A DNA stretch of 64,000 nt from a virus (lineage: Duplodnaviria > Caudoviricetes): the IMG/VR virus record IMGVR_UViG_3300042883_001293; one strand, given 5' to 3'. Positions 13,673-56,689 of the stretch are shown here, piece after piece (within the stretch, counting starts at the first letter, position 1; every line of letters starts with the position of its first letter). The notes beneath the pieces are model-generated. The model was not told the DNA's origin. It ran no database searches and saw only the letters and a program-made list of their open reading frames with translations. Position numbers and translations under genes: made by a program.

Positions 13673-13908
13673 GTTCCACTTACATATACTTTGTTATCTT
13701 TTTTTGTATTGCTTACTTAATTGTTACCGATCAATCCATAGCGAGGGCATTTTATATGCTGACTCAACTTGCTCAAGTACAATATGAAAAAACAAAGTGG
13801 TGGATAATTCACTCACCAGATAATATCATAGTTAAATGGTTGATTTACAGAAAATCTATGAAGATGGCGAAAGAACTGATGGGAGAATTGGAAAAGAAGA
13901 ATAAATAA
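13669..13908 (+). CDS. Hypothetical protein, N-terminal hydrophobic helix
   Basis: ORF track; coupled. Confidence 0.65.
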   Translation: MSSTYIYFVIFFCIAYLIVTDQSIARAFYMLTQLAQVQYEKTKWWIIHSPDNIIVKWLIYRKSMKMAKELMGELEKKNK

Positions 13909-13963
13909 TAATGCTTTTATGTGTGGTAACTAAAAGCAAAAGGGGGGATCCCCCCCCTTTTTT
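13908..13963 (+). ncRNA. Candidate antisense sRNA A (cognate to GIY-YIG gene 14009)
   Basis: ATAAATA 13901-07; stem tgctttta/taaaagca with loop tgtgtggtaac; terminator G6/C6+T6; 13912-29 is the reverse complement of 13988-14006 with one bulge. Confidence 0.55.
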
Positions 13964-13976
13964 ACTGCGTAATTCG

Positions 13977-13984
13977 TATAAATA
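13977..13984 (+). promoter_or_regulatory. Late promoter TATAAATA for endonuclease
   Basis: Exact T4 late consensus. Confidence 0.7.
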
Positions 13985-14008
13985 GTATTACCACACATAA
14001 AAAGCAGT

Positions 14009-14623
14009 ATGAATACTCTACGCATATACACTTATCGTATATCCTTTGAGGAAGTGCCGTATTATTATTATGGGGTCCATAAAGAAAAAAATTTTAACGA
14101 AGAGTATTATGGGTCTCCTGTAACCAACAGATGGTGCTGGGAAACTTATACTCCAAAGAAACAGATATTAGAATATTTTGTTGATTGGGAAGAAGCGCAA
14201 AGAGTAGAAGCAAGAATAATAAAAGAGTTTTATAATAAAGATAAGTGGTGTCTAAATGAAAATTGTGCTGGGTATATATCCTTACAGAAAAGAAGTGAGG
14301 CAGGAAAAGTTGGAGGTAAAAGGGGGTCGGCAAAATGTAAAGAAATGGGAATCGGAATATTTGGGATGTCCTCAGAAAAAAGAACTGAAACTGCTAAAAA
14401 ATCTGTTAAACAGGCAAAGAAAAATAAAACTGGTATATTTGCTCTAACAAAAGAGCAATTAGTTGAGAATGGAAAAAAAGGTGGTATAATATCTTCTAAA
14501 AAGTTAAACTCTCAAAAGTGGATGTGTTTGGAAACTGGTATGGTATCTACCATAGGTCCTCTTACAAGGTATCAAAAAGTGAGGGGTATTGATACTTCTA
14601 AAAAAGTAAAAATAAATAACTAA
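14009..14623 (+). CDS. Seg-like GIY-YIG homing endonuclease
   Basis: IYTY...YYYYG...YYGS...E...N catalytic pattern; GKxGG repeats; paralog of 20341 and 26683. Confidence 0.75.
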   Translation: MNTLRIYTYRISFEEVPYYYYGVHKEKNFNEEYYGSPVTNRWCWETYTPKKQILEYFVDWEEAQRVEARIIKEFYNKDKWCLNENCAGYISLQKRSEAGKVGGKRGSAKCKEMGIGIFGMSSEKRTETAKKSVKQAKKNKTGIFALTKEQLVENGKKGGIISSKKLNSQKWMCLETGMVSTIGPLTRYQKVRGIDTSKKVKINN

Positions 14624-17904: not shown

Positions 17905-18185
17905 TGAGTTTTTCTAAGACTGTTTCTGTTTTTGCTGCTCTCGCAAGTATCTTTGCTGCTGGTGCTACTGGTTGGAAACTTGCAGATTCTCAAAAAGAAG
18001 TTCCTCTGAGTCCATTAGACCAAAAGGTTATGGAGTTGGAGAAGAAACTGGATCAAGCACAACAACCTCAAGTTGCTCCAGAACCTGTAAATCTCCCACA
18101 ACCTACAGTTCAAACAGCACCACAACTTAACGTACTTCCTGCTCCAACACCACCTCCTCCTGTTCCCGAAAATGCCACTCCTTGA
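17904..18185 (+). CDS. Secreted/membrane-anchored Pro-rich protein
   Basis: Signal-like N-terminus, PTPPPP tail. Confidence 0.65.
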   Translation: MSFSKTVSVFAALASIFAAGATGWKLADSQKEVPLSPLDQKVMELEKKLDQAQQPQVAPEPVNLPQPTVQTAPQLNVLPAPTPPPPVPENATP

Positions 18186-20006: not shown

Positions 20007-20230
20007 AACCTTATCTTTTGATTGTTGGGGACAACTACTACCCTTCTGCTTATACTGGTGATTGGGTTGCTTGTTATTCTACCGAAGAAGAAGCAAAAGA
20101 AAAATGGGAAGAACTATCTAAAGATAAGTATAGTAATGATTGGTATGAAATCGTTGATTTGAGGGAATGGATGGAAGATACTACATTTGATACTTTTGGA
20201 CCTACTGGACTTATTGGAGACCCACAATAG
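20003..20230 (+). CDS. Hypothetical protein
   Basis: Coupled ORF. Confidence 0.65.
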   Translation: MKPYLLIVGDNYYPSAYTGDWVACYSTEEEAKEKWEELSKDKYSNDWYEIVDLREWMEDTTFDTFGPTGLIGDPQ

Positions 20231-20243
20231 TAGAATAAATAGA

Positions 20244-20305
20244 AGTGTCTGTTTGGACGGCAATCTCTACAGACAAAAGATTAGGTGCTTTCGGGCACCT
20301 TTTCT
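20244..20305 (+). ncRNA. Candidate antisense sRNA B (cognate to 20341)
   Basis: ATAAATA 20235-41; stem tgtctgt/acagaca; terminator aggtgc-tttcgg-gcacct-tttct; 20248-62 complementary to 20320-34. Confidence 0.6.
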
Positions 20306-20307
20306 AT

Positions 20308-20315
20308 TATAAATA
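20308..20315 (+). promoter_or_regulatory. Late promoter TATAAATA
   Basis: Exact consensus. Confidence 0.7.
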
Positions 20316-20340
20316 ATAATGCCGTCCAAATAGAATAGAA

Positions 20341-21006
20341 ATGACTAAAAATAGTCCTAGAATTTACACATATAAGGTTACCTTTGAAGAAGTTCCTTAT
20401 TACTATTATGGTAGTAAAAAAGAAAGGTATTTTGATGAAGAGTATTGGGGTTCTCCCGTAGCAAACAAATGGTGTTGGGGACTTTATACTCCAAAGAAAC
20501 AGATATTGGAATATTTTGAGTTTAGTGATGAAGGATATATCAAAGCACAAGAAGTTGAAGGGAGATTAATTAACCCAGTATATAATACCGATAAATGGTG
20601 CTTAAATGAAAGTTGCTTGGGAGTTTTTTCTTTAGAGCAAAAAAGTAAAGCAGGAAAAAAAGCATATGAACTTAAATTAGGGGTTCATTCAAGAAGTAAA
20701 GACCAAATGAGTAAAGATGGTAAAAAAGGTGGAAACAGCAATAGAGAAAATAAAACTGGAATTTGTGGAAGAAGTTTGGAAGAAATGATTGAACACGGCA
20801 GAATAACTGGTTATAAAAAGAAAGAATTAAATATCGGTGTTTGTGGTTTATCAAAAGAACAGAGAATTGAAAATTCTAAAATAACTAATTCTCAAAGATG
20901 GAAATGTTGTATAAGTGGTTATGTATCTACTGCTTCTGGTGTAGTTCAGCATCAAAAAGGAAAAGGAATAGATACATCAAAAAGTAATAGACGCAGAATA
21001 GCATAG
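20341..21006 (+). CDS. Seg-like GIY-YIG homing endonuclease
   Basis: IYTY...YYYYG...YWGS...E...N; paralog of 14009 and 26683. Confidence 0.75.
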   Translation: MTKNSPRIYTYKVTFEEVPYYYYGSKKERYFDEEYWGSPVANKWCWGLYTPKKQILEYFEFSDEGYIKAQEVEGRLINPVYNTDKWCLNESCLGVFSLEQKSKAGKKAYELKLGVHSRSKDQMSKDGKKGGNSNRENKTGICGRSLEEMIEHGRITGYKKKELNIGVCGLSKEQRIENSKITNSQRWKCCISGYVSTASGVVQHQKGKGIDTSKSNRRRIA

Positions 21007-21063
21007 GACACTTCTCAAACTGGAACAAGGGCACTTGAAAACGGGTGCCCTTTGTCGTATAAT
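21004..21063 (+). promoter_or_regulatory. Early dyad element (ACTGGAACA subtype) + stem-loop promoter
   Basis: taggacact-tctcaa-actggaaca; stem aagggcac/gtgccctt; TTGAAA-17-TATAAT. Confidence 0.75.
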
Positions 21064-21084: not shown

Positions 21085-21351
21085 ATGAAACCACTTAAAC
21101 TCTTTCAATACGATAAAAAAGTTTGGGATGATGGTGATGCCGACTACACTTGGCAGTTCGGTATCATCAACAACAAAACATTATTCTGGGTTCATTATGA
21201 AAATCCCAGTCGTTTAGTTTTTAGTGATGGTGGATTACACATCCTATTCTCATTCTTTACTAATTCTTTATTTGGAGTAGATTTTCAACTTGGTAAGGTT
21301 GGTTTGAGTTTCAATTTTTTCACAGAATACTTTGATGGGTGGGAAGAATGA
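21085..21351 (+). CDS. Hypothetical protein
   Basis: ATG after promoter leader. Confidence 0.65.
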   Translation: MKPLKLFQYDKKVWDDGDADYTWQFGIINNKTLFWVHYENPSRLVFSDGGLHILFSFFTNSLFGVDFQLGKVGLSFNFFTEYFDGWEE

Positions 21352-26571: not shown

Positions 26572-26586
26572 ATAACTTATAAATAA

Positions 26587-26646
26587 TATGTCTGTTGAAA
26601 CCGCAATCTCTACGGACAGATTAGGTGCTCTTATGAGCACCTTTTC
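26587..26646 (+). ncRNA. Candidate antisense sRNA C (cognate to 26683)
   Basis: TATAAATA 26578-85; stem tgtctgt/acggaca; terminator aggtgctc-ttat-gagcacct-tttct; 26591-605 complementary to 26662-76. Confidence 0.6.
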
Positions 26647-26649
26647 TAT

Positions 26650-26657
26650 TATAAATA
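26650..26657 (+). promoter_or_regulatory. Late promoter TATAAATA
   Basis: Exact consensus. Confidence 0.7.
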
Positions 26658-26682
26658 ATAATGCGGTTTCAATAGAATAGAA

Positions 26683-27366
26683 ATGACTTCACAAAGTCCA
26701 AAAATATACTTGTATAAAATTACCTTTGAAGAAGTTCCATATTACTATTATGGAGTTCATAAGGAAAAATATTTTAATGATGATTATTGGGGTTCTCCAA
26801 AAACAAATAAATGGTGTTGGGAACTTTATACACCAAAGAAACAAATACTCCAATACTTTGATTTCAACGATAATGGTTGGATAGAGGCACAAGAAGTTGA
26901 AAAAAGAATAATCAAACCAGTTTATAATCAAGATAAATGGTGTTTGAATGAGAGTTGTGGTGGATATTTCTCTCTCAATACTTTAAGTATTGGTGGACAA
27001 AAAGGAGGAGAAAGAGCAAAAGAACTTGGTGTTGGATTTTTTGCTATGAGTGAAGAAGAAAAATTCCAAGCAAGAAGTAAAGTAGGTAAAAGTGGAGCAG
27101 GTGGTAGAAAAATAAAAGAACTTGGGATTGGTGTTTGTGGATTAACATTAGAGCAAAGAAGAAATCTTGGATTAAAAACCAAAGAACTTGGTGTGGGTAT
27201 ATGTGGATTGACCATAGAAGAACGAAGAGAAATTTCAAAAATTGCAAATTCTCAAAGATGGGAATGTTATGAAACTGGTTATGTATCCACTGCTGCTGGT
27301 GTTGTTGCGTATCAAAAAGCAAGAGGGATAAACACATCAAAAAACAATAGACGCAGAATATCATAA
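26683..27366 (+). CDS. Seg-like GIY-YIG homing endonuclease
   Basis: IYLY...YYYYG...YWGS; KELGxGIxGLT repeats; paralog of 20341. Confidence 0.75.
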   Translation: MTSQSPKIYLYKITFEEVPYYYYGVHKEKYFNDDYWGSPKTNKWCWELYTPKKQILQYFDFNDNGWIEAQEVEKRIIKPVYNQDKWCLNESCGGYFSLNTLSIGGQKGGERAKELGVGFFAMSEEEKFQARSKVGKSGAGGRKIKELGIGVCGLTLEQRRNLGLKTKELGVGICGLTIEERREISKIANSQRWECYETGYVSTAAGVVAYQKARGINTSKNNRRRIS

Positions 27367-27424
27367 AGACACTTTCCAAACTGGAACACGGGCACTTGAA
27401 AACGAGTGCCCTTTGTCGTATAAT
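27365..27424 (+). promoter_or_regulatory. Early dyad element (ACTGGAACA subtype)
   Basis: aaagacact-ttccaa-actggaaca; TTGAAA-17-TATAAT. Confidence 0.75.
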
Positions 27425-30085: not shown

Positions 30086-30289
30086 TGAAACCACTACCAG
30101 ATAAAAGAGAATTGGATATTATGTGGACTGTTGCCACCTCAACCAGTATTGAAACTGGCACAAGACCCCACCACGGTTTCGCAAAAATGGAAATGTCTTG
30201 AAACTGGTTATGTTAGTAATGCTGGTGGACTTTCTCAATATCAAAAGGCACGAGCAATAGATACTTCCAAAAGAGTTAGAATATCATAA
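30085..30289 (+). pseudogene. Deletion chimera: 5' half of a 17149-paralog fused to the last ~35 codons of a Seg-like endonuclease
   Basis: MKPLPDKRELDIMWTVATSTSIETGTRPHHGFA, then in another frame (30182-30289) QKWKCLETGYVSNAGGLSQYQKARAIDTSKRVRIS*. Confidence 0.75.
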
Positions 30290-30347
30290 GGACACTTCCC
30301 AAACTGGAACAAGGGCACTTGAAACCTAGTGCTTTTTGTTGTATAAT
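30288..30347 (+). promoter_or_regulatory. Early dyad element (ACTGGAACA subtype)
   Basis: aaggacact-tcccaa-actggaaca; TTGAAA-17-TATAAT. Confidence 0.7.
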
Positions 30348-30371
30348 GATTTTATGAAAGATAAACCACCT

Positions 30372-40784: not shown

Positions 40785-41192
40785 ATGCAACAAGATAATA
40801 CTATGCGTAACGCCACAATTATTGGTGTTTCGTTCATTCTCTCTCTGTTTATTATCAACGCAGTGGTTGGTCCTCTCTATAATGTGTGGGCACAATCACT
40901 ACAAGGTAAGGCAGAACTGCAAAAGGCAGAATATACTCGCCAGGTTGCAGTTCTGGAAGCACAAGCAAAGAAAGATTCTGCACAACAACTTGCTGATGCT
41001 GAGGTGATTCGTGCCACTGGTGTTGCCAAAGCAAACCAAATCATTGGTAATTCGTTGAAAGACAACCGTGAGTATCTGCAATACCTGTATATCACTGGTC
41101 TGGAAGAAGGATCCAACAAAGGTAATGTGACGATCTATGTTCCTACGGAGAATGGTCTTCCTGTGCCAACTCTCTCCTACGATAGGAAATAA
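40785..41192 (+). CDS. Membrane protein with SPFH/prohibitin-like coiled-coil tail
   Basis: TM, then AEQ/AE-rich coil, YLQYLYI...TIYVPTE. Confidence 0.6.
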   Translation: MQQDNTMRNATIIGVSFILSLFIINAVVGPLYNVWAQSLQGKAELQKAEYTRQVAVLEAQAKKDSAQQLADAEVIRATGVAKANQIIGNSLKDNREYLQYLYITGLEEGSNKGNVTIYVPTENGLPVPTLSYDRK

Positions 41193-41197
41193 ATAAT

Positions 41198-41253
41198 AAT
41201 ACCTGATTTGACCGCAATCTATCAGGATGGAGGAGAGAAATCTCCTCCTTTTT
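41198..41253 (+). ncRNA. Candidate antisense sRNA D (cognate to 41288)
   Basis: ATAAATA 41189-95; stem cctgat/atcagg; terminator ggaggaga-gaaa-tctcctcc-T5; 41203-16 complementary to 41268-81. Confidence 0.6.
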
Positions 41254-41255
41254 AA

Positions 41256-41263
41256 TATAAATA
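41256..41263 (+). promoter_or_regulatory. Late promoter TATAAATA
   Basis: Exact consensus. Confidence 0.7.
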
Positions 41264-41287
41264 TATGTGCGGTCAAATTAGAGTAGA

Positions 41288-41863
41288 ATGAAAGGCACTA
41301 TCTATTGTGTCCATTGTATTTCAACAGGAAAGAAATACATAGGACAAACAATACAAAAATTACAATACAGAATAAATGACCACTTTTGTAGGTCTTCTAA
41401 CTCACAATATAAATTCCATCGTGCTATAAAAAAGTATGGTAAAAATAACTTCATTTATGGTGTGATTGAAGAATGTGATTTTGAATTGATAAACGAAAAA
41501 GAAATGTATTGGATAAGAATTTATGATACATTTAAGAATGGATATAATAGTGATACTGGTGGAATGAATGGTAGGTTGCTTTCAGAAGAAACTAAAAGTA
41601 AAATACAAAAGAAAGCACATAAACAAAACAACCCAAGATATGGAGTAAAACTTGATAATGATTTGAAGGAAAAAATAAGAGAATCAAATGCAGATTATGA
41701 ATATTGTATAGTGGAACTTGAAAACAACATCACACATAAAACAAACAGTTTAAGAGATTTTTGTAAAAGATATGATTTAAAAAGAGCAAATCTAACAAGA
41801 ACTTTTACTGGAAAATATAAACAGCATAAAGGTTTTAGAATGGTAAGTAAGGTGCCACTTTAA
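41288..41863 (+). CDS. GIY-YIG homing endonuclease with NUMOD/HTH-like C-terminus
   Basis: GTIY...KYIGQT...R...H...E...GYN. Confidence 0.85.
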   Translation: MKGTIYCVHCISTGKKYIGQTIQKLQYRINDHFCRSSNSQYKFHRAIKKYGKNNFIYGVIEECDFELINEKEMYWIRIYDTFKNGYNSDTGGMNGRLLSEETKSKIQKKAHKQNNPRYGVKLDNDLKEKIRESNADYEYCIVELENNITHKTNSLRDFCKRYDLKRANLTRTFTGKYKQHKGFRMVSKVPL

Positions 41864-47180: not shown

Positions 47181-47923
47181 TTGCGAACATAGAACCACCA
47201 ATATCCTTTCCAAGTATATTTTCCAGGATTCTTTAAACTTCTAAGAATTCCTTGCTTATCTGTTGCCTTATATTCTCTCAATGCGGCACTTATACTCTCA
47301 TACCGAACTTCAATCTGTTCGGTTTTTTTATTGACTCCAAATACTGCTCTTTTCTGATCTTTCTCTTCTATAATTTGCCACTTATGTCCATATGCAGTTC
47401 TACCTGTACGTGCGGCAAGTATAATGTTTGAATTGTTAATTGATTTACCAGTGACTTGTTCTGCTGCTACTCTTGCACTTTCATAGTCGGTACAGATTCC
47501 AGTCTTTAGATTCTTACCACGTATCTTAAATCCAAAGTGTTTACCATTCCCACGATTCTCTTCATTCCATTGAATTAGGTGTGGTGATGTTTTATATGAG
47601 CGTGGTTTCTTTTCCTCTTGTTTTATCTCTTTAACTTCAACTGGTTTTATTATTGTTTCAATTACATTGTATTCTGGTTGATACTTCTCTATCCAATAGT
47701 TTGTTTTATTATAGAATTCAGATTCATCACATTCATCTAGTTCTCTGATCATAAAGTTGTGTATACCATACTCTCTGAATGCTTTATGTAATGGTTCAGA
47801 GGACATTCTTTTAGATTTCTCTATGTGTTGTACCCATTCCTTGTTCATTGCAAGTGTGGTGTTTCCTATGTACTTGTGTTCATTCTGTTTGTTGAGAATA
47901 AGGTAGATAATTCCTCTTTTCAT
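47177..47923 (-). CDS. GIY-YIG endonuclease with tandem NUMOD1-like domains
   Basis: GIIY...KYIG.T...H...E...YN; two YES.. helix-turn-helix-like repeats; only well-supported minus-strand gene in the window. Confidence 0.8.
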   Translation of the reverse strand: MKRGIIYLILNKQNEHKYIGNTTLAMNKEWVQHIEKSKRMSSEPLHKAFREYGIHNFMIRELDECDESEFYNKTNYWIEKYQPEYNVIETIIKPVEVKEIKQEEKKPRSYKTSPHLIQWNEENRGNGKHFGFKIRGKNLKTGICTDYESARVAAEQVTGKSINNSNIILAARTGRTAYGHKWQIIEEKDQKRAVFGVNKKTEQIEVRYESISAALREYKATDKQGILRSLKNPGKYTWKGYWWFYVRN

Positions 47924-50485: not shown

Positions 50486-50569
50486 GGGAGTATGGTGGAA
50501 TCGGTAGACACACCAGACTTAAAATCTGTTGGGAGCAATCCCGTGGGAGTTCAAGTCTCCCTACTCCTA
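50486..50569 (+). tRNA. trnL: tRNA-Leu(UAA), CCA not encoded
   Basis: Acceptor GGGAGTA/TACTCCT, D-loop GGTAGAC, anticodon TAA 50520-22, long variable arm, TTCAAGT T-loop. Confidence 0.92.
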
Positions 50570-50866: not shown

Positions 50867-51016
50867 GCCCCTAAAACATTAGAAGACTTTATGAGTCTGA
50901 TAAACACTCCTAATGTTACGGAATGTTGCAGGGGGTTGATCTGGGGTGCTGGGGGTGCTATGTTTGATTCGTGGTTGGGAACCGCTCTACATTCCCCCAA
51001 CTGCCCCATTCTTGAC

Positions 51017-51352
51017 ATGAACCTCACCAAATCCTTCCCCCCTGCTGATGATCTGCTCGTGCAATTTCAGCAGGTTGACTATCAGAAACTCTACGCCGAT
51101 GTGCGGAGTTTCGTTCTCACCGTGGCAGCATTTGTTGCTGTGGTTGCTACTATCCTCTGGAACAAGATTCAAACCATGCGATTCAAAACCCCCGAAATGA
51201 TCACCCAATTCTTCTACCTGGGTGTGAACATGATTGGTGAACCTGGCGATGAAATCGTTGGGTTGAGTGTAGGCAACCGCTACGTTGGTTTGTATAGCAA
51301 CGGCATCGCTTGGGGTGTGCTCAACGAGCAGGGTGCCCTGACCAATCAGTAA
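51017..51352 (+). CDS. Membrane-anchored hypothetical early protein
   Basis: Central TM helix. Confidence 0.65.
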   Translation: MNLTKSFPPADDLLVQFQQVDYQKLYADVRSFVLTVAAFVAVVATILWNKIQTMRFKTPEMITQFFYLGVNMIGEPGDEIVGLSVGNRYVGLYSNGIAWGVLNEQGALTNQ

Positions 51353-51420
51353 ACTGGCACACAGGGGGTTGCGTTGCTGCTGCCCCCATGCCAAACTACG
51401 TTTGTTCCTGAAACACACCC

Positions 51421-51549
51421 ATGGACACCTACTTCTTTGAGATCCAAGACGCCCCGGGTGAGATCTATGACATCGAGGATCTGCAGCAGGAGGATGACGA
51501 TGAGGATCAATCCTTCAACCAAATGCTCAACAGCAACTACACCCTGTGA
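51421..51549 (+). CDS. Small acidic protein (42 aa)
   Basis: Own translation after dyad 51338-61 and repeated leader. Confidence 0.55.
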   Translation: MDTYFFEIQDAPGEIYDIEDLQQEDDDEDQSFNQMLNSNYTL

Positions 51550-51695
51550 TGACACTCACGCACCTCAACTATCAGGAGATTGATACCCTCCTCGCTATTC
51601 TTGAGACTAGCGACTGGCACTACCTGACAGAACTTACAGAGGCGGACATTCCGCTTCTGTATGACAAACTCACTGAAATGAGGGATGAGATCTGA
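51549..51695 (+). CDS. Hypothetical protein (48 aa)
   Basis: Own translation; TGATG coupling. Confidence 0.55.
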   Translation: MTLTHLNYQEIDTLLAILETSDWHYLTELTEADIPLLYDKLTEMRDEI

Positions 51696-51868
51696 TGAAC
51701 CGTTCTGAACTGCAAGATGCTCTCATTCAGCAGATGCTGGATGACATGGACCTCAAGACAATGACCCAACTCTGTTATGACTACCTGGATGAGGGTTATG
51801 CAAAGTATTCTGATGAAGAATTGATCACCGAGTGTGAAGAATACTACCCCGAACTGCTAGAGGGGTGA
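51695..51868 (+). CDS. Conserved cyanophage early protein (57 aa)
   Basis: MNRSELQDALIQQMLDDMDLKT...YYPELLE. Confidence 0.65.
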   Translation: MNRSELQDALIQQMLDDMDLKTMTQLCYDYLDEGYAKYSDEELITECEEYYPELLEG

Positions 51869-51923
51869 CGATCTGACAACTGGCACACAGGGGGTTGACC
51901 CCACCCCCAACCCGTGCCATAAT
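51864..51923 (+). promoter_or_regulatory. Early dyad + sigma70 promoter
   Basis: ggtgacgat-ctgaca-actggcaca; TTGACC-17-CATAAT. Confidence 0.7.
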
Positions 51924-51993
51924 TGATTCAACAAGCGGGGGTGAAGCATCCCGCTCAAAACACTTCACTCAACCCTTTACTTTTTTTAACATC

Positions 51994-52212
51994 ATGTTCA
52001 AGTTCCAATCCAGCGCCATCGAAAACATCTCCGATGTGCAAAACGGTCAAGTGACTGTTACTTTCAACGGTGGTCGTGACTATACCTACGGTGTGCAAGA
52101 TGTGGAGCAATTCGTTGCTCAACTCTCCGAAGTGATCACTAAGAGCGAATCTGTGGGTCGCTTCATTAACACCGCAATCCGTAGCGAGCAACTGACTCAG
52201 GTTGCCGCCTGA
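51994..52212 (+). CDS. KTSC-domain-like protein
   Basis: SSAI...VTF.GG..YTY...SVGRFIN. Confidence 0.55.
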   Translation: MFKFQSSAIENISDVQNGQVTVTFNGGRDYTYGVQDVEQFVAQLSEVITKSESVGRFINTAIRSEQLTQVAA

Positions 52213-52219
52213 GGCACAC

Positions 52220-52241
52220 GGGGGGCATCCTGCCCCCCTTT
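52220..52241 (+). terminator. Rho-independent terminator
   Basis: G6-catcctg-C6-ttt. Confidence 0.6.
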
Positions 52242-52243
52242 CT

Positions 52244-52304
52244 TGTGCCACTTGATCAACCTGCACACACCCCCACCCTAAGGGGTCTGCTGCTGCTGTA
52301 TGAT
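52244..52304 (+). promoter_or_regulatory. Early dyad + -10
   Basis: tgtgccact-tgatca-acctgcaca; TATGAT 31 bp downstream. Confidence 0.65.
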
Positions 52305-52329
52305 TCGATCAACGCCAACCACCCCACCC

Positions 52330-52944
52330 ATGGCACACACCGATTCCATTCTCGCAACCTACTTCCAGAGCAGTGTTTATGATCGGCAAGTTGGGATGCA
52401 ATGGTACAACAACGCCTTTCAGGTTTGTGTTACTTTAGGCGAAAAGTACGGTGTCCATTCTGACATTGTGGCAGGCGTGATTGCTGCACTTTCTCCCAAC
52501 AATAAGTGGGAATCTAACATTATCGACGCTGAAATCATGCTGCGTGCATGGGCAGCAGAGATCGCATACAGCAGTGTTAAAGTTTCCACCTATTTCAACA
52601 ATAAGGATAAAGCAGCAACAATCCTTGATTGTCAACTAACCCGCGAACAGATTGTAACTGTTTTGCGTGGCAATAAGACGGTGGCGTTCTTCCTTTGCAT
52701 CGCGTCTAATGGTGACAGCGACACGCCCTGTATTGATGGTCATGCTTACAACGTGTGGAACGGAACTGTATCTACACTCAAGGAAGTTCCCTCTATGAGT
52801 GACAAAACCTACCGCCACATTCAAGACGCTTACCGTGACGCTGCTAAGATTATCTCAGGCGTGACGGGTTCCTATCATTCAGCGGCACAAGTTCAGGCGG
52901 TGACTTGGGTAGCGTACCGCAGGATGCACAAAGGTCTGCTGTGA
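52330..52944 (+). CDS. Conserved phage protein (DUF7178-like), possible HhH-glycosylase fold
   Basis: WY...AALSPNNKW..N...G.KT.AF...CIDGHAYN...QVQAVTW. Confidence 0.6.
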   Translation: MAHTDSILATYFQSSVYDRQVGMQWYNNAFQVCVTLGEKYGVHSDIVAGVIAALSPNNKWESNIIDAEIMLRAWAAEIAYSSVKVSTYFNNKDKAATILDCQLTREQIVTVLRGNKTVAFFLCIASNGDSDTPCIDGHAYNVWNGTVSTLKEVPSMSDKTYRHIQDAYRDAAKIISGVTGSYHSAAQVQAVTWVAYRRMHKGLL

Positions 52945-53022
52945 CGCTCTGAGAACCGCACACTGGGGGGCACCGTTGCCCCTCTCTGCCCTCTATACTG
53001 ATCTCAGTTCGCAAGCAACCCG

Positions 53023-53196
53023 ATGACCTTCATCTCCTGGAGCGCCGCCCCCAAGGGCACTGGCATGGACCACGCGGAGTTCTTCACCAGCGAAGCACAC
53101 GCCGTGGATGTTGCCTTTGACTGGAGCATCGAACTCGGTGGCGCTCCCGTGGTGATCTACTGCAACGAACAGGAATGGATGGAGATCACTGCCTGA
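53023..53196 (+). CDS. Conserved cyanophage early protein (57 aa)
   Basis: Own translation after dyad 52940 and TATACT 52994. Confidence 0.6.
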   Translation: MTFISWSAAPKGTGMDHAEFFTSEAHAVDVAFDWSIELGGAPVVIYCNEQEWMEITA

Positions 53197-53206
53197 AGTG
53201 GCACAC

Positions 53207-53230
53207 AGGGGGCAACCTGCCCCCTTTTTT
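53207..53230 (+). terminator. Rho-independent terminator
   Basis: gggggca-acc-tgccccc-T7. Confidence 0.7.
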
Positions 53231-53319
53231 ATGGTGCCCCTTTTTTTATTTCAAGGCTGCCCCCGTGACGACTGTTGACATCAACAGGGCTACCCCGCCC
53301 CTCCTTCGCTTGTGACCGT

Positions 53320-53379
53320 ATTATAGGCAATGGATGCCCCGCAAAACCCGCATCGTGTGCCACTTGCTGAACCGTCTAG
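53320..53379 (-). promoter_or_regulatory. Minus-oriented early dyad + TATAAT (possibly bidirectional)
   Basis: Reverse strand ...agtggcaca, then TATAAT 30 bp later (53325-20); TATGGT on + at 53409. Confidence 0.6.
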
Positions 53380-53436
53380 AACTGCTGCCACCGCCTCTCA
53401 GCACCCTGTATGGTGACAATACGCCGCAACCTCACC

Positions 53437-53550
53437 ATGCGCTACATGATCGCCGCCGTGCTGCTGTGCCTGCTATGGGAACCGATCCGCCCCGTCCGCA
53501 GTGTGACAGCTCAGGCACTGTACACTGCAGGCGACATGATCGCCCGCTGA
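53437..53550 (+). CDS. Small membrane protein (37 aa)
   Basis: Own translation MRYMIAAVLLCLLWEPIRP. Confidence 0.5.
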   Translation: MRYMIAAVLLCLLWEPIRPVRSVTAQALYTAGDMIAR

Positions 53551-53585
53551 CCCCCTATACTGATCTCAGTTCACCACCTGAACCC

Positions 53586-53852
53586 ATGGCAACCGCAACC
53601 CGCACCCACCAGACCAACCTGCTGGATGTCACCTACAACGGTTGGACTAATTACAAGACCTGGAATGTTGTTCTCTGGATTGAGAACGATGAGGGCATTC
53701 AAGACTACATTCAGGAGCATCACATCTGCTGCTATGAGGAGATGATCGAAGCACTCTATGAGTGTGGCAGCACTGAGACCCCCGATGGGGTGAAGTGGAA
53801 CGATCCTGAGATCAACCGTGCTGAGATCAACGGCGACGTGTTCGATTTCTAA
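53586..53852 (+). CDS. Conserved phage protein (YNGWTNY.TW.V.LWI.ND; DUF7249-like)
   Basis: Motif recognised; ATG after repeated leader. Confidence 0.75.
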   Translation: MATATRTHQTNLLDVTYNGWTNYKTWNVVLWIENDEGIQDYIQEHHICCYEEMIEALYECGSTETPDGVKWNDPEINRAEINGDVFDF

Positions 53853-53897
53853 ACTGGCACACGGGGCGCCCAGCGCCCCTCCCCGACCCCCTATACT
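53838..53897 (+). promoter_or_regulatory. Early dyad + -10
   Basis: actggcaca; TATACT 30 bp downstream; leader gatctcagttcaccacctgaacc shared with 53560 and 54612. Confidence 0.65.
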
Positions 53898-53924
53898 GAT
53901 CTCAGTTCACCACCTGAACCGACC

Positions 53925-54101
53925 ATGACCCAACAGCAACTGCTCCAGAACGCCCGCAACGTGATCATCGGCATGACCGATGCCCAGCGCACCTGCCTGA
54001 AGACCGCCGCCATCGCCAAGGGGCGCACCGCCCAGCAGGTGAGCAAGGCAGGCACCATGCGCCTGGCGCTCTGGGTGAGCAAGGGCACCAGCGCAATCTG
54101 A
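53925..54101 (+). CDS. Hypothetical early protein (58 aa)
   Basis: Own translation. Confidence 0.55.
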   Translation: MTQQQLLQNARNVIIGMTDAQRTCLKTAAIAKGRTAQQVSKAGTMRLALWVSKGTSAI

Positions 54102-54167
54102 CCCCTACGGGGGGCGCTCCTGCCCCCCCTTCCATGCTACAATTCTCTCAGTTCAAACGACCCCACC

Positions 54168-54329
54168 ATGCGCTTCGAAGTCCGCTACCAGACCCCCTAC
54201 GGTGAGCAGCAGTGGCGCTCCCAGTGGTTCAAAGACCTGGAGGAGGCAGAGCGTATGGTAGACTTCTACCGCTCCTGCGGATCGCCCTCCCACATCGCTC
54301 CCTCCTCCCTGGCACAACTGGAACGCTGA
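54168..54329 (+). CDS. Conserved cyanophage early protein (53 aa)
   Basis: MRFEVRYQTPY..QWRSQWF...RMVDFYRSCGSP. Confidence 0.65.
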   Translation: MRFEVRYQTPYGEQQWRSQWFKDLEEAERMVDFYRSCGSPSHIAPSSLAQLER

Positions 54330-54386
54330 TCAACGGGAATGGGTGCGCCCTTAAAGACGCCCAGCAACTCTAATCCTGAAACCACG

Positions 54387-54536
54387 ATGACACGCGACCT
54401 TGCGCTTTCTCTCCTCCGCTCTGGCAACAACGGCGCACAAATCCTCCAAATTCTTGACTCTATTGTTCTGGGGGATAGTGTTGACGAATGTGATGAGTAT
54501 GGTGCAGACCCTACACTTGATGCCATCGACTTCTGA
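54387..54536 (+). CDS. Conserved cyanophage early protein (49 aa)
   Basis: MTRDLALSLLRSGNNG. Confidence 0.6.
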   Translation: MTRDLALSLLRSGNNGAQILQILDSIVLGDSVDECDEYGADPTLDAIDF

Positions 54537-54635
54537 TCAGACTGTGCCAACCCGCTAGGCGGCACAGCGGAGGGCACCGCCCCTCCCCTTTGCCCCCTGA
54601 TCTGCTACAATTCTCTCAGTTCACCACCTGAACCG

Positions 54636-54878
54636 ATGACCGACCCCACCCCCCTGAAGACCATCCTCTGCCCCACCCGCTACCCGTTCGCTGTTGCCTA
54701 CGTGAAGGACGGTAAGATCGCCAGCACCATCGCCTACGCTACCACCCTGGAGGACTGCTACTTCCAGGTGCAGGGATGGCGCAGCAGCATGGGCAGCGCC
54801 GACTACATCATGGCAGAGCAGAAGGAGATCGGTGAGGAGACCCCCGATCGGGTGAACACGTACTGGGTGGCGGTCTGA
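54636..54878 (+). CDS. Hypothetical early protein
   Basis: ATG after TACAAT leader. Confidence 0.65.
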   Translation: MTDPTPLKTILCPTRYPFAVAYVKDGKIASTIAYATTLEDCYFQVQGWRSSMGSADYIMAEQKEIGEETPDRVNTYWVAV

Positions 54879-54936
54879 TCCGCCAGGGGGGCACACCCGC
54901 CCCCCATGCTACAATTCTCTCAACCGCAACCGACCG

Positions 54937-55122
54937 ATGACCGTGACCCTGACCCCCATCTCCACCAAGGCGAAGAACCGCCTGGCAAACCAGATGGCAG
55001 GCGACCCCGTGGTTGTGGTTGAGCAGCGCGACGGCAACGACCTGTTCTGCGTGAGCAGCAACGGCACCTGGTGCGCCTGGGTGAACTGCCTCACCGATCC
55101 GAACTGGGCAGTTCGCTTCTGA
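54937..55122 (+). CDS. KAKNRLAN-family protein, GC-rich paralog of 17692
   Basis: Protein similarity visible by eye. Confidence 0.75.
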   Translation: MTVTLTPISTKAKNRLANQMAGDPVVVVEQRDGNDLFCVSSNGTWCAWVNCLTDPNWAVRF

Positions 55123-55161
55123 CCTGCTACAGTACCCAAGCAACCGACACCCCCCCCCCCC

Positions 55162-55341
55162 ATGGCGATCTTCTCCCAGTGCTCCGACCTGCAGACCCGC
55201 GAAACCATGTGGGTTGCCCGTAAGACTGACGATGCCCCTCAGGATCGCTTCGCTGGGCAGATCAACCCTGCCGAAGGGTACTGGTGGGCAGCACGTTACG
55301 CCGAACGCTACGCCGACAACGTGGTGCCCCTGGAGGGTTGA
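55162..55341 (+). CDS. Hypothetical early protein (59 aa)
   Basis: Own translation; preceded by C12. Confidence 0.55.
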   Translation: MAIFSQCSDLQTRETMWVARKTDDAPQDRFAGQINPAEGYWWAARYAERYADNVVPLEG

Positions 55342-55366
55342 CCTCCTGCCCCCGACCCTGTAGAAT
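55338..55366 (+). promoter_or_regulatory. sigma70 promoter
   Basis: TTGACC-17-TAGAAT. Confidence 0.7.
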
Positions 55367-55391
55367 TCCAGAGCAAACCGCACCGCACCCG

Positions 55392-55616
55392 ATGACCACC
55401 GCCCTCCGCGACTGCCTCAACGTGTACGCCCCTGGCACCACCTTCTCTGACATCCTGTGGGATTGCTCCCACCCCGCCAACGACACCATCGCTTGGCACA
55501 TTGCCCTGGAGTCTGCAGAGATGCACTCCTGCCTCTACGACTTCCGCAAAGACTACGGGCACCTGCAGGGTGAGCGCATCGACTGCGGTGAGTTCCTCTC
55601 CTGGTTGGGGTACTGA
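55392..55616 (+). CDS. Hypothetical early protein
   Basis: ATG after repeated leader. Confidence 0.6.
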   Translation: MTTALRDCLNVYAPGTTFSDILWDCSHPANDTIAWHIALESAEMHSCLYDFRKDYGHLQGERIDCGEFLSWLGY

Positions 55617-55622
55617 TCCCTA

Positions 55623-55690
55623 CGGGGCACCTTGACGGGTGCCCCACCCACCCTGTAGAATTCCAGAGCAAACCGCAACGCACCCGATGC
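55623..55690 (+). repeat. Stem-loop sigma70 promoter + leader, direct-repeat copy 1
   Basis: ggggcacc-ttgac-gggtgcccc, TTGACG-18-TAGAAT; nearly identical to 55996-56063. Confidence 0.8.
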
Positions 55691-55989
55691 CTGCCACCAT
55701 CGCCACCGCCTTCACCCCCGACCAGATGCTCTACCTGGGGCACTCCGTGTTCAGCAGCGCCATGCGCTCCTGGGCACTGGTGATGAACAACGACAACGAT
55801 GCCGAACTGCTGGTCCTGTTCAACAGCAGCGACACCGTGTACCGCTACGCCTTCCGCGCCTGGGAGGATGCCCGCAACTGGGATGAGATACGCAAGCAGG
55901 GTGAGGAGGAGGATGCCGACCGCATCTCCTGGGGGCGCTGCTTCCACCGCTTCCTGAGCGAAGGGGCGATCCTGCCCATCGCCGCCTGA
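55687..55989 (+). CDS. KTSC-like early protein
   Basis: SSAM...LLVLFN...VYRY...SWGRCFH. Confidence 0.5.
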   Translation: MPATIATAFTPDQMLYLGHSVFSSAMRSWALVMNNDNDAELLVLFNSSDTVYRYAFRAWEDARNWDEIRKQGEEEDADRISWGRCFHRFLSEGAILPIAA

Positions 55990-55995
55990 ACCCTG

Positions 55996-56063
55996 CGGGG
56001 CACCTTGACGGGTGCCCCATCCACCCTGTAGAATTCCAGAGCACACCGCACCGCACCCGATGC
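55996..56063 (+). repeat. Stem-loop sigma70 promoter + leader, direct-repeat copy 2
   Basis: Only a few substitutions versus 55623-55690. Confidence 0.8.
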
Positions 56064-56320
56064 TCACCTCCATCATCCGCACCGCGATCCGCACCCGCCT
56101 GATCAACGACGGCCCGATGACCTGCAGCGACCTGGTTCGCGCCATGGGCATGGACCCCCGCCGCCATAAGGGCACCATTCACGCCCTCATGGTTGACATG
56201 GAGAAGGCAGGCACCCTGGATGCCACCCGCAGCGACAGCGGCAAGCGCGACCTCTGGTTCATCGTGCCCACCGCGATCCGCAAGCGTGATCGCCTTGCCG
56301 CCGCCATGGCAGGAGTCTGA
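56060..56320 (+). CDS. Winged helix-turn-helix DNA-binding protein
   Basis: L.NDGPMTCSDLVRAMG...TIH.LM.DMEKAG.L...KRDLWF. Confidence 0.6.
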   Translation: MLTSIIRTAIRTRLINDGPMTCSDLVRAMGMDPRRHKGTIHALMVDMEKAGTLDATRSDSGKRDLWFIVPTAIRKRDRLAAAMAGV

Positions 56321-56392
56321 TTCGTTCGTGGGGGTGGGTTGACTCCTGTCCCCCTACCGTCTACAATACGAGAGCACACCGCAACCGACCTG

Positions 56393-56689
56393 ATGGATTT
56401 CACCGTTACCCGCCTCCGTCGCCGTGGTCCCCGCAAGGGCGAGACTCTGACCCGCAACGCCCAGCACGGTGCTGGCGCCGCCGTGGGTTCTGTTCGTGAT
56501 TCTGACCTGCCCGCTGGTGGCGCCTCTCATGCCGTTGGCGCTGGCAAGGGCGTGACCATCACCCGCGTCGTGGGACTGGGCAGGCAGTGGGTTGGCGATA
56601 AAGACGCCAACGCCTCCCGCTTCGCCGCCCAGGCGAAGGCAGACCGAATCGCTGCTGCCCGTGACCGCCTGGCAGAGCGGCAGGGGTGA
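56393..56689 (+). CDS. Basic Gly/Ala-rich early protein
   Basis: TTGACT-17-TACAAT at 56339-67; ATG after leader. Confidence 0.6.
   Translation: MDFTVTRLRRRGPRKGETLTRNAQHGAGAAVGSVRDSDLPAGGASHAVGAGKGVTITRVVGLGRQWVGDKDANASRFAAQAKADRIAAARDRLAERQG

Follow-up and report, generated by a model that had tools for sequence, protein, structure and literature searches.

Introduction

In phage T4 and its relatives, several homing endonuclease genes (I-TevI, I-TevII, I-TevIII and segB of T4, and mobE of Aeh1) are preceded by an RNA hairpin that masks the ribosome-binding site in RNA from upstream promoters, while a late promoter located inside the hairpin gives rise to a translatable RNA; the e and soc genes of T4 also carry such masks (PMC2988022). 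Here we describe a control cassette of about 100 nucleotides (nt) that stands in front of four nuclease genes, designated A to D, in a stretch of 64,000 nt from a virus of the Caudoviricetes (IMG/VR record IMGVR_UViG_3300042883_001293). We refer to this whole stretch as the window. The cassette belongs to a family found in T4-like cyanophages, its two arms pair in a manner that is specific to each copy, and it probably works on the same principle as the T4 masks.

Three further kinds of system are relevant to the comparison. Type I toxin–antitoxin pairs include hok/sok, tisB/istR-1 and fst RNAI/RNAII. The c4 RNA of phages P1 and P7 is cut from the same transcript as its target, which is the antirepressor of a temperate phage, and matched changes on both sides underlie the heteroimmunity of P1 and P7. 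This antisense RNA of immI (c4-icd-ant) was reportedly described by Citron and Schuster in 1990. It is encoded upstream of its target on the same strand, and its loops carry sequences antisense to the ribosome-binding site, with co-varying specificity (PMC12197685). T4-type phages also contain mobile regulatory cassettes known as promoter-early stem-loops (PeSLs; PMC2839356, PMC4122927). A T4 late promoter consists of an 8-base-pair (bp) box alone, at positions −13 to −6; its commonest variant in T4 has A at −13, and (a/g)C at −13/−12 is the consensus in Aeh1 (PMC2988020).

Four copies of the cassette in the window

All four sites were read directly, and they share the same order of elements: an outer box (box1), a local hairpin, an intrinsic terminator, an inner box (box2) with the sequence TATAAATA, a leader arm and the ATG of the nuclease gene. 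The features of copy B are as follows.

20234–20241, plus strand: outer box (box1) of copy B, AATAAATA, late-promoter-like, matching the family-wide pattern N[A/C]TAAATA
20246–20275, plus strand: local hairpin predicted by folding, stem TGTCTGT/ACAGACA; the left stem and loop hold the 5' arm, 20248–20262
20278–20306, plus strand: intrinsic terminator predicted by terminator scan and folding, core stem 20283–20300 followed by TTTTCT
20308–20315, plus strand: putative inner late promoter (box2), TATAAATA, identified by motif
20320–20334, plus strand: 3' arm in the leader, complementary to 20248–20262; it covers a purine-rich Shine–Dalgarno (SD)-like AGA and ends 6 nt before the ATG
20341–21006, plus strand: nuclease gene B, 221 amino acids (aa), Seg-like and a paralogue of A and C by protein comparison

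The other copies lie at the following positions, with scores from the covariance model described below.

13900–14011, plus strand: copy A cassette; box1 13900–07, hairpin 13912–38, terminator 13939–60 followed by a T run; 73.8 bits
13977–84, plus strand: box2 of copy A; 3' arm 13988–14006, ATG 14009, gene 14009–14623
26578–26685, plus strand: copy C cassette; box1 TATAAATA 26578–85, hairpin 26590–617, terminator 26618–47; 102.5 bits
26650–57, plus strand: box2 of copy C; 5' arm 26591–605 paired with 3' arm 26662–76, ATG 26683, gene 26683–27366
41188–41290, plus strand: copy D cassette; box1 41188–95, hairpin 41202–26, 5' arm 41202–16; 93.4 bits
41229–48, plus strand: terminator of copy D, followed by a T run; box2 41256–63, 3' arm 41268–83, ATG 41288
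41288–41863, plus strand: gene D, GIY-YIG/NUMOD3 by Pfam

The outer box is AATAAATA in A, B and D and TATAAATA in C, and is separated by 4–6 nt from the local hairpin, which has a closing stem of 6–8 bp and a loop of 11–16 nt. Directly 3' of the hairpin is the terminator, a GC-rich stem-loop with a T run; the stems of A, B and C are picked up by the terminator scan. The leader arm is 15–20 nt long, begins 2–4 nt past the inner box and ends 3–6 nt before the ATG, and in every copy it is complementary to the left stem and loop of the local hairpin. In copy B the pairing of 20248–62 with 20320–34 comprises 14 Watson–Crick pairs and one G:U. An earlier note on this DNA had described these elements in front of the four genes, and had remarked that B, C and D share a G:U pair at one position and a GCAATCT loop motif. 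Direct reading of the sites confirms both descriptions. It also bears out the statement that B and C combine identical flanks with co-varying cores: their regulatory regions have a near-identical backbone, the 7-nt core of the arm differs at five of its seven positions, and each of the five differences is matched by a compensating change in the leader.

The inner box sequence occurs five times in the window, always inside one of the four cassettes, and 8 of the 17 plus-strand occurrences of ATAAATA lie there too. Outside the cassettes the window is an early-gene region of small open reading frames (ORFs) on the plus strand. RNA that reads through a cassette is predicted to form a long-range helix enclosing the terminator, with an energy of −39 to −43 kcal/mol (z of −6.3 to −7.7 relative to shuffled sequences), and the short RNA that would end at the terminator folds as a hairpin plus terminator (z of −4.2 to −5.8 on the same comparison). 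A search of the window against Rfam at gathering thresholds found no family that covers the cassettes; the sole match was a tRNA at 50486–50569.

A family of cassettes in cyanophages

A covariance model was built from 31 copies at nuclease homologues in IMG/VR, and two later protein-anchored scans added 59 unique copies. The family comprises 98 unique cassettes with 79 distinct 5' arms, from IMG/VR contigs and cultured phages, all of them freshwater or estuarine T4-like cyanophages. Matches to the model include six copies in the cultured freshwater phage S-SRM01, with outer boxes at 17953, 48433, 51247, 55959, 62406 and 192421, and three in phage B23, both of which are Kyanoviridae (T4-like), and one or two in each of the partial contigs. 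The genes behind the cassettes are always mobile nucleases: at least three GIY-YIG/NUMOD3 lineages, HNH nucleases and one TnpB. The TnpB (399 aa, with OrfB_IS605, Cas12f-like TNB and HTH_OrfB_IS605 domains) is encoded at 309–1505 on the minus strand of a contig of about 34.4 kb (L112, IMGVR_UViG_3300035126_001036). The proposal that different nuclease subfamilies have this layout in common, originally made for GIY-YIG genes, therefore extends to HNH and TnpB genes.

The distribution is limited. None of the distant GIY-YIG homologues from other phage groups (L036–L094) carries the cassette, and nucleotide searches of cultured phages found S-SRM01 as the sole match. In Syn9, S-PM2, P-HM2, P-SSM2 and S-B05 the covariance-model search gave two sub-threshold matches, both of them a plain terminator with a late box but without arms. 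These marine model cyanophages thus lack the cassette, and for this reason their published transcriptomes and start-site maps cannot be used here. No orphan unit of late box, hairpin and terminator standing apart from a nuclease gene was found in S-SRM01 or in the window.

S-SRM01 (MW015081) also contains two simpler mask types, at 126060–126172 and 77550–77663. One is a simple mask, a T4-type hairpin of 17 bp with CATAAATA/TATAAATA in its loop, located before an HNH gene. The other, which we call type 2, carries the anti-leader arm in the loop of its terminator, has an outer box that is degenerate or missing, and is located before a GIY-YIG gene. Contigs L149 and L235 provide further examples of the simpler cassette design.

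One contig stands apart. In L215 (IMGVR_UViG_3300046804_001454), upstream of 401, the two arms are mismatched and the leader half is identical to that of copy C. This single metagenomic case is either a backbone recombinant or an assembly chimera, and it was not used as evidence.

Pairing between the arms

The long-range helix is 12–17 bp long (up to 20 bp in the read-through fold of copy A), with energies of −19 to −29 kcal/mol. RNAalifold recovered it from a plain MAFFT alignment, with compensatory changes in 10 of the 12 pairs. In the covariance-model alignment 97.4% of cells pair, compared with 63% in shuffles and 28–43% in slid controls, and double changes occur in 11 of the 12 pairs (173 cells); these figures are to be read with the caution that such an alignment is biased towards the modelled structure. 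The energy of the arm–leader duplex, which requires no alignment, gives the same picture: the family mean is −24.2 kcal/mol for cognate and −11.2 ± 4.3 kcal/mol for non-cognate combinations, in line with the earlier proposal that each arm is specific for its own leader. Within the window, cognate duplexes have −24 to −26 kcal/mol and non-cognate ones are no stronger than −14.7 kcal/mol. In S-SRM01 the median of 102 leaders behind late boxes is −9.2 kcal/mol, compared with −22 to −28 kcal/mol for the cassettes.

The local hairpin was found in all 40 copies examined. Its stem falls into classes that covary (CCTGA/TCAGG, CTCTAA/TAAGAG, CTTTTA/TAAAAG and TCTGT/ACAGA), and the mean stem energy is −6.1 kcal/mol for cognate and −2.8 kcal/mol for non-cognate halves. 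Changes in the left stem are thus matched in the right stem as well as in the leader, which implies two mutually exclusive pairings. The loop motif GCAAT[CT] is present in 51 of the 98 family members.

We conclude that the pairing of arm and leader is real, is under selection, and is specific for each copy. A covariance model across cyanophages had been put forward by the earlier note as a way of checking this, and it reveals strong covariation of the arms in the homologues. Comparison of B and C shows differences at five of seven core positions and 5 of the 15 positions of the whole arm, compared with 36% at fourfold-degenerate sites. This divergence does not decide between pairing in cis and in trans. 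Diversifying selection on the arms was considered and rejected, the divergence of B and C being not clearly apart from neutral divergence with compensation.

The two boxes and the leader

The inner box is TATAAATA in 89 of the 98 copies and a one-base variant of it in the others, and it ends 2–5 nt 5' of the 3' arm. The outer box follows the pattern N[A/C]TAAATA in all 98, as NATAAATA in 82 and NCTAAATA in 16; its second position is never G or T, and these two kinds of variant are the same as the known late-promoter variants of T4 and Aeh1. The first base is nearly random in the outer box, whereas the inner box strongly favours T there. The bases just 3' of the outer box are variable, so the box is conserved above its background. 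Its distance from the base of the hairpin is 3–6 nt in 94 of the 98 copies. Outer box and local hairpin occur together in these 98 copies and are jointly absent from three type-2 copies. The extra upstream late-promoter-like box proposed for the window is thus retained throughout the family, at a spacing that would let a T4-type late transcript begin at the hairpin base.

Similar boxes are found elsewhere in S-SRM01. Of its 96 occurrences of NATAAATA, 65 (68%) lie no more than 60 nt upstream of an ORF start, and the corresponding figures are 9 of 28 (32%) for NCTAAATA and 12 of 146 (8%) for N[G/T]TAAATA. Phage B23 has an annotated late transcription factor resembling T4 gp33.

The outer box may also serve as a source of stop codons. 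In 44 of the 80 copies that could be evaluated, the TAA of the box or its spacer provides the stop codon of the upstream ORF, at offsets 2 and 6; for copies with NCTAAATA this is true of 12 of 14. In the remaining 36 the upstream stop lies 5' of the box.

The leader has a purine motif, with A at −9 in 84 and G at −8 in 80 of the 98 copies, which lies inside the helix. The helix spans the leader from its predicted first nucleotide to 1–6 nt before the AUG.

The nuclease genes

The four genes behind the cassettes had been described as GIY-YIG endonucleases. This is clear for D, the only one of the four that matches Pfam GIY-YIG and NUMOD3. A and C match PHROG 314 ('homing endonuclease') in the same profile region as D, and A, B and C are mutual paralogues of 46–58% identity. 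A profile of the A/B/C proteins gave no match among PDB sequences, and their fold assignment consequently rests on the motif and the PHROG match, to which B is linked as a 58% paralogue of C.

Two other nuclease-like sequences are present in the window. At 30095–30289 there is a remnant of about 60 aa from the C-terminus of an A/B/C-type nuclease, whose 5' part and cassette are deleted and whose downstream promoter module is kept; it is therefore uninformative about the cassette. On the minus strand, 47681–47917 has a weak match to a D-like GIY-YIG protein (32% over 79 aa).

Insertion boundaries and the downstream module

Genes B and C are each followed by a short composite element.

21029–21063, plus strand: PeSL-like stem-loop overlapping TTGAAA-17-TATAAT, after gene B; predicted terminator and early promoter
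27390–27424, plus strand: near-identical stem-loop/TTGAAA-17-TATAAT element after gene C, found by motif and terminator scan

A third PeSL-like module lies at about 30290–30350, after the nuclease remnant.

Metatranscriptome contigs from freshwater and an estuary, which come from relatives lacking nuclease B, follow the upstream ORF as far as 20226, where they diverge, and become similar again near 21097, giving an inserted unit of 870 bp. The 5' boundary of copy B is immediately 5' of TAGTAGAATAAATAG. The divergence at 20226/20227 indicates that the inserted element is the whole unit from outer box to early promoter. With a cassette in front and a PeSL-like promoter behind, such a unit would be transcriptionally neutral for the host phage.

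Elsewhere in the window, the region 51000–56600 (about 5.6 kb) has a GC content of 48–66%, compared with about 35% elsewhere in the phage. Its products include DUF7178 and DUF7249 proteins, it also has unassigned minus-strand ORFs, and it may be foreign DNA or an assembly join.

Proposed mechanism and alternatives

The conserved anatomy of the cassette and the covariation of both the long-range helix and the local hairpin are observations; from them we infer the timing of expression, the masking of translation, and the activity of promoters and terminator. In our view the cassette is probably a portable, self-insulating control module of about 100 nt for mobile nuclease genes, which uses the principle of I-TevI, segB and mobE in a longer-range form that contains a terminator. 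Transcription arriving from an upstream early gene would meet the intrinsic terminator. In any RNA that reads through, the upstream arm of 15–20 nt would pair with the leader, including its purine-rich ribosome-binding motif, so that the nuclease would not be translated. Because the inner TATAAATA lies between the arms, late transcripts would begin with the first base of the 3' arm and, free of the 5' arm, would be translatable. Beyond the nuclease gene, the stem-loop and early promoter would restart transcription of the downstream phage genes. Because the cis mask is common to all three architectures, the full cassette and the two simpler types, we take it to be the core function.

Several observations weigh against this mechanism, in addition to the alignment bias noted above. 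The four metatranscriptomes gave only short contigs of relatives, none of them over a cassette; the public RNA runs that were found are metatranscriptomes with 4–9% of sampled words. With a good terminator between the arms, masked read-through would be rare, and it is hence not obvious why a pure cis mask should be under strong selection. Formation of the local hairpin opposes the mask by about −6 kcal/mol, and a model limited to cis offers no evident role for it. The AUG lies outside the helix, and the SD-like motif is weak. The identity of the late promoters is taken by analogy from T4 and from the positions of the motifs, and is to that extent presumptive.

The same features raise the question of a small RNA. 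The outer box is probably a second late promoter, which would give a two-hairpin RNA of 51–67 nt that ends at the terminator and could make the same pairing in trans. An invariant outer box, limited to known late-promoter variants and placed for a start at the base of the hairpin, makes an antisense RNA of about 55 nt plausible, and we lean slightly towards the view that such a terminated RNA is made. Action of this RNA in trans is a more tentative proposal. It would block ribosome binding on the cognate late mRNA, perhaps with cleavage of the duplex, would damp the late expression of the nuclease or set its timing, and is compatible with the cis mask; we treat an active outer promoter with this effect as a genuine possibility that we do not favour. 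In its fullest form, each nuclease gene (GIY-YIG, HNH or TnpB) would be served by an antisense RNA of about 55 nt, private to it and acting in trans, with its own late promoter and terminator, in which the hypervariable loop core provides specificity and which sets a threshold or pulse of late translation, and this we consider rather doubtful. An alternative is that the module works purely in cis: the outer box would be the AT-rich 5' end of a mobile element, supplying stops in two frames (TAAATAA) and no promoter, and the hairpin and terminator would close and stabilise the upstream mRNA, with read-through masking and the inner late promoter as the only parts of consequence. The use of the box or spacer as upstream stop, in both frames and above all in the NCTAAATA copies, fits this explanation and is at the same time an objection to the small RNA, as it gives the box another possible use. 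Also in favour of a purely cis module are the boundary of copy B just before TAGTAGAATAAATAG, the T4 precedents that work without an outer promoter, and the type-2 and type-0 cassettes, which have none and are presumably functional. Yet stops do not explain why A or C always precedes TAAATA when N[G/T]TAAATA is the commoner sequence in the genome (146 occurrences compared with 28 of NCTAAATA), why ATA invariably follows the TAA, why the distance to the hairpin base is fixed at 3–6 nt, or why box and local hairpin go together, and in 36 of the 80 copies the upstream stop precedes the box. Moreover, since T4-type late promoters need this box alone (PMC2988020), a conserved perfect box would be hard to keep silent. 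We therefore think a purely cis module unlikely.

What argues for the small RNA is the outer box, constant in all 98 copies beside variable spacer bases, in variants that are functional as late promoters (PMC2988020) and are enriched before ORF starts in S-SRM01. The start predicted from it is the hairpin's first or second base, and the resulting RNA would be compact, a 5' hairpin followed by a terminator. Covariation keeps the local hairpin, which displays the arm core in its loop, and which comes and goes with the outer box. In S-SRM01 and the window, units of late box, hairpin and terminator are confined to cassettes. The late leader has no structure of its own and can pair from its first base onwards, with a predicted mean net binding energy of −15.4 kcal/mol; arms differ among the copies of one genome; and c4 provides a precedent (PMC12197685). 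In addition, the local hairpin weakens the cis mask, and the strong terminator makes tight conservation of a pure cis mask odd. On the other side, all of the covariation is equally expected from cis pairing, there are cassettes that presumably function although they have no outer box, and the short contigs from the RNA runs weigh here as well. A small RNA and target with the same class of promoter would be made in a fixed ratio, the regulatory gain from which is unclear; cross-pairing between some copies of one genome reaches −16 to −17 kcal/mol; the outer box tolerates any base at its first position, where the inner box favours T; and the arms of B and C have not diverged clearly faster than synonymous sites. 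The earlier note had likened the arrangement to a type I toxin–antitoxin pair, in which the nuclease would be the toxin, its stable mRNA would be kept down by a short-lived antisense RNA, and a carrier that lost the cassette would die. This addiction model has in its favour only a broad resemblance, that of a small RNA able to pair with the ribosome-binding region of the gene for a protein that may do harm. The likeness breaks down on the type of target, the gene arrangement and the biological setting: the targets are homing or transposon DNA nucleases of about 178–400 aa rather than small membrane toxins, post-segregational killing has no obvious meaning in a lytic phage, and the RNA would come from an upstream gene in the orientation of its target instead of one antisense or divergent to it. 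There is no sign of different half-lives of the two RNAs, and the regulation of T4 homing nucleases accounts for the layout. We consider addiction highly improbable.

Implications

The cassette is a real, widespread and well-supported RNA control module, on which the sequences make a small-RNA layer plausible. It would make selfish nuclease genes into harmless passengers: the module would stop incoming transcription, mask leaky RNA and restrict expression to the late phase, and the element at the rear would restart transcription of the host phage. It is exchanged among unrelated nuclease families including TnpB, and so ties homing endonucleases to IS200/605-type elements through shared regulation in phages. 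The 79 natural pairs of co-varying arm and leader on a near-fixed backbone are a ready set of orthogonal RNA–RNA interaction pairs.

An active outer promoter would mean that cognate small RNAs acting in trans are described here for the first time, both for the control of homing endonucleases and for T4-like late transcription. If they act in trans, they would form a naturally evolved family of orthogonal small RNA–leader pairs on selfish elements of a lytic phage. Both S-SRM01, with six copies and the two simpler types, and B23 are in culture, which makes the question directly testable.

Comparison with known systems

Judged by its sequence, the cassette belongs to the class of T4 masks with a nested late promoter. 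In both, the phage is T4-like, a selfish nuclease gene stands behind, and RNA arriving from upstream has its ribosome-binding region paired with an arm located 5' of it. A putative late promoter, TATAAATA, lies between the arms, and late RNA starting there would not contain the 5' arm. Control appears multi-layered in both cases, with terminators nearby. The earlier note had set the layout apart from that of I-TevI, segB and mobE; in fact the cassette fits their logic (PMC2988022), and simpler versions confined to cis exist in the same phages. Unlike in T4, 55–75 nt separate the cyanophage arms, with a complete intrinsic terminator between them; the 5' arm has a conserved hairpin of its own in which it folds first, and a second late-promoter-like box marks the 5' edge. 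The cyanophage module is moreover portable over GIY-YIG, HNH and TnpB genes, and its arm cores are hypervariable and co-vary.

The c4 RNA is, by analogy, a nearer relative in action than type I toxin–antitoxin pairs, and it was overlooked in the claim that nothing like this arrangement had been described: c4, too, is an antisense RNA whose gene precedes the target on the same strand, and the specificities of the two co-vary. Like c4, the putative cyanophage RNA would be encoded upstream on the strand of its target, and would present in a loop a sequence complementary to the downstream ribosome-binding region, with a specificity that co-varies among relatives. It differs in that it would have its own promoter and terminator and would act on a nuclease in a lytic phage, and there is no sequence or structural homology. 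RNA and target are here divided by a terminator and a separate promoter, which excludes the cassette from the c4 family; it could at most be c4-like in action.

Type I toxin–antitoxin pairs resemble the cassette in having a small structured RNA (here putative) with a terminator, complementary to the translation-initiation region of an adjacent and potentially harmful gene. They differ in that their targets are small toxic peptides, not large nucleases in a lytic phage; the cyanophage RNA would be in tandem on the same strand, and no addiction logic applies.

With PeSLs the cassette shares the form of a short terminator/promoter composite that flanks small mobile genes in hyperplastic regions and is common to several loci. 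The element after B and C, a stem-loop overlapping the −35 box and followed by TATAAT, is itself of this kind. PeSLs have early sigma-70-type promoters and no co-varying anti-leader arm, whereas the upstream cassette has putative late promoters and an RNA mask.

Searches of the literature turned up no account of this cassette. The principle of a mask with a nested late promoter is known from T4; the portable form that spans a terminator and carries an outer box is new.

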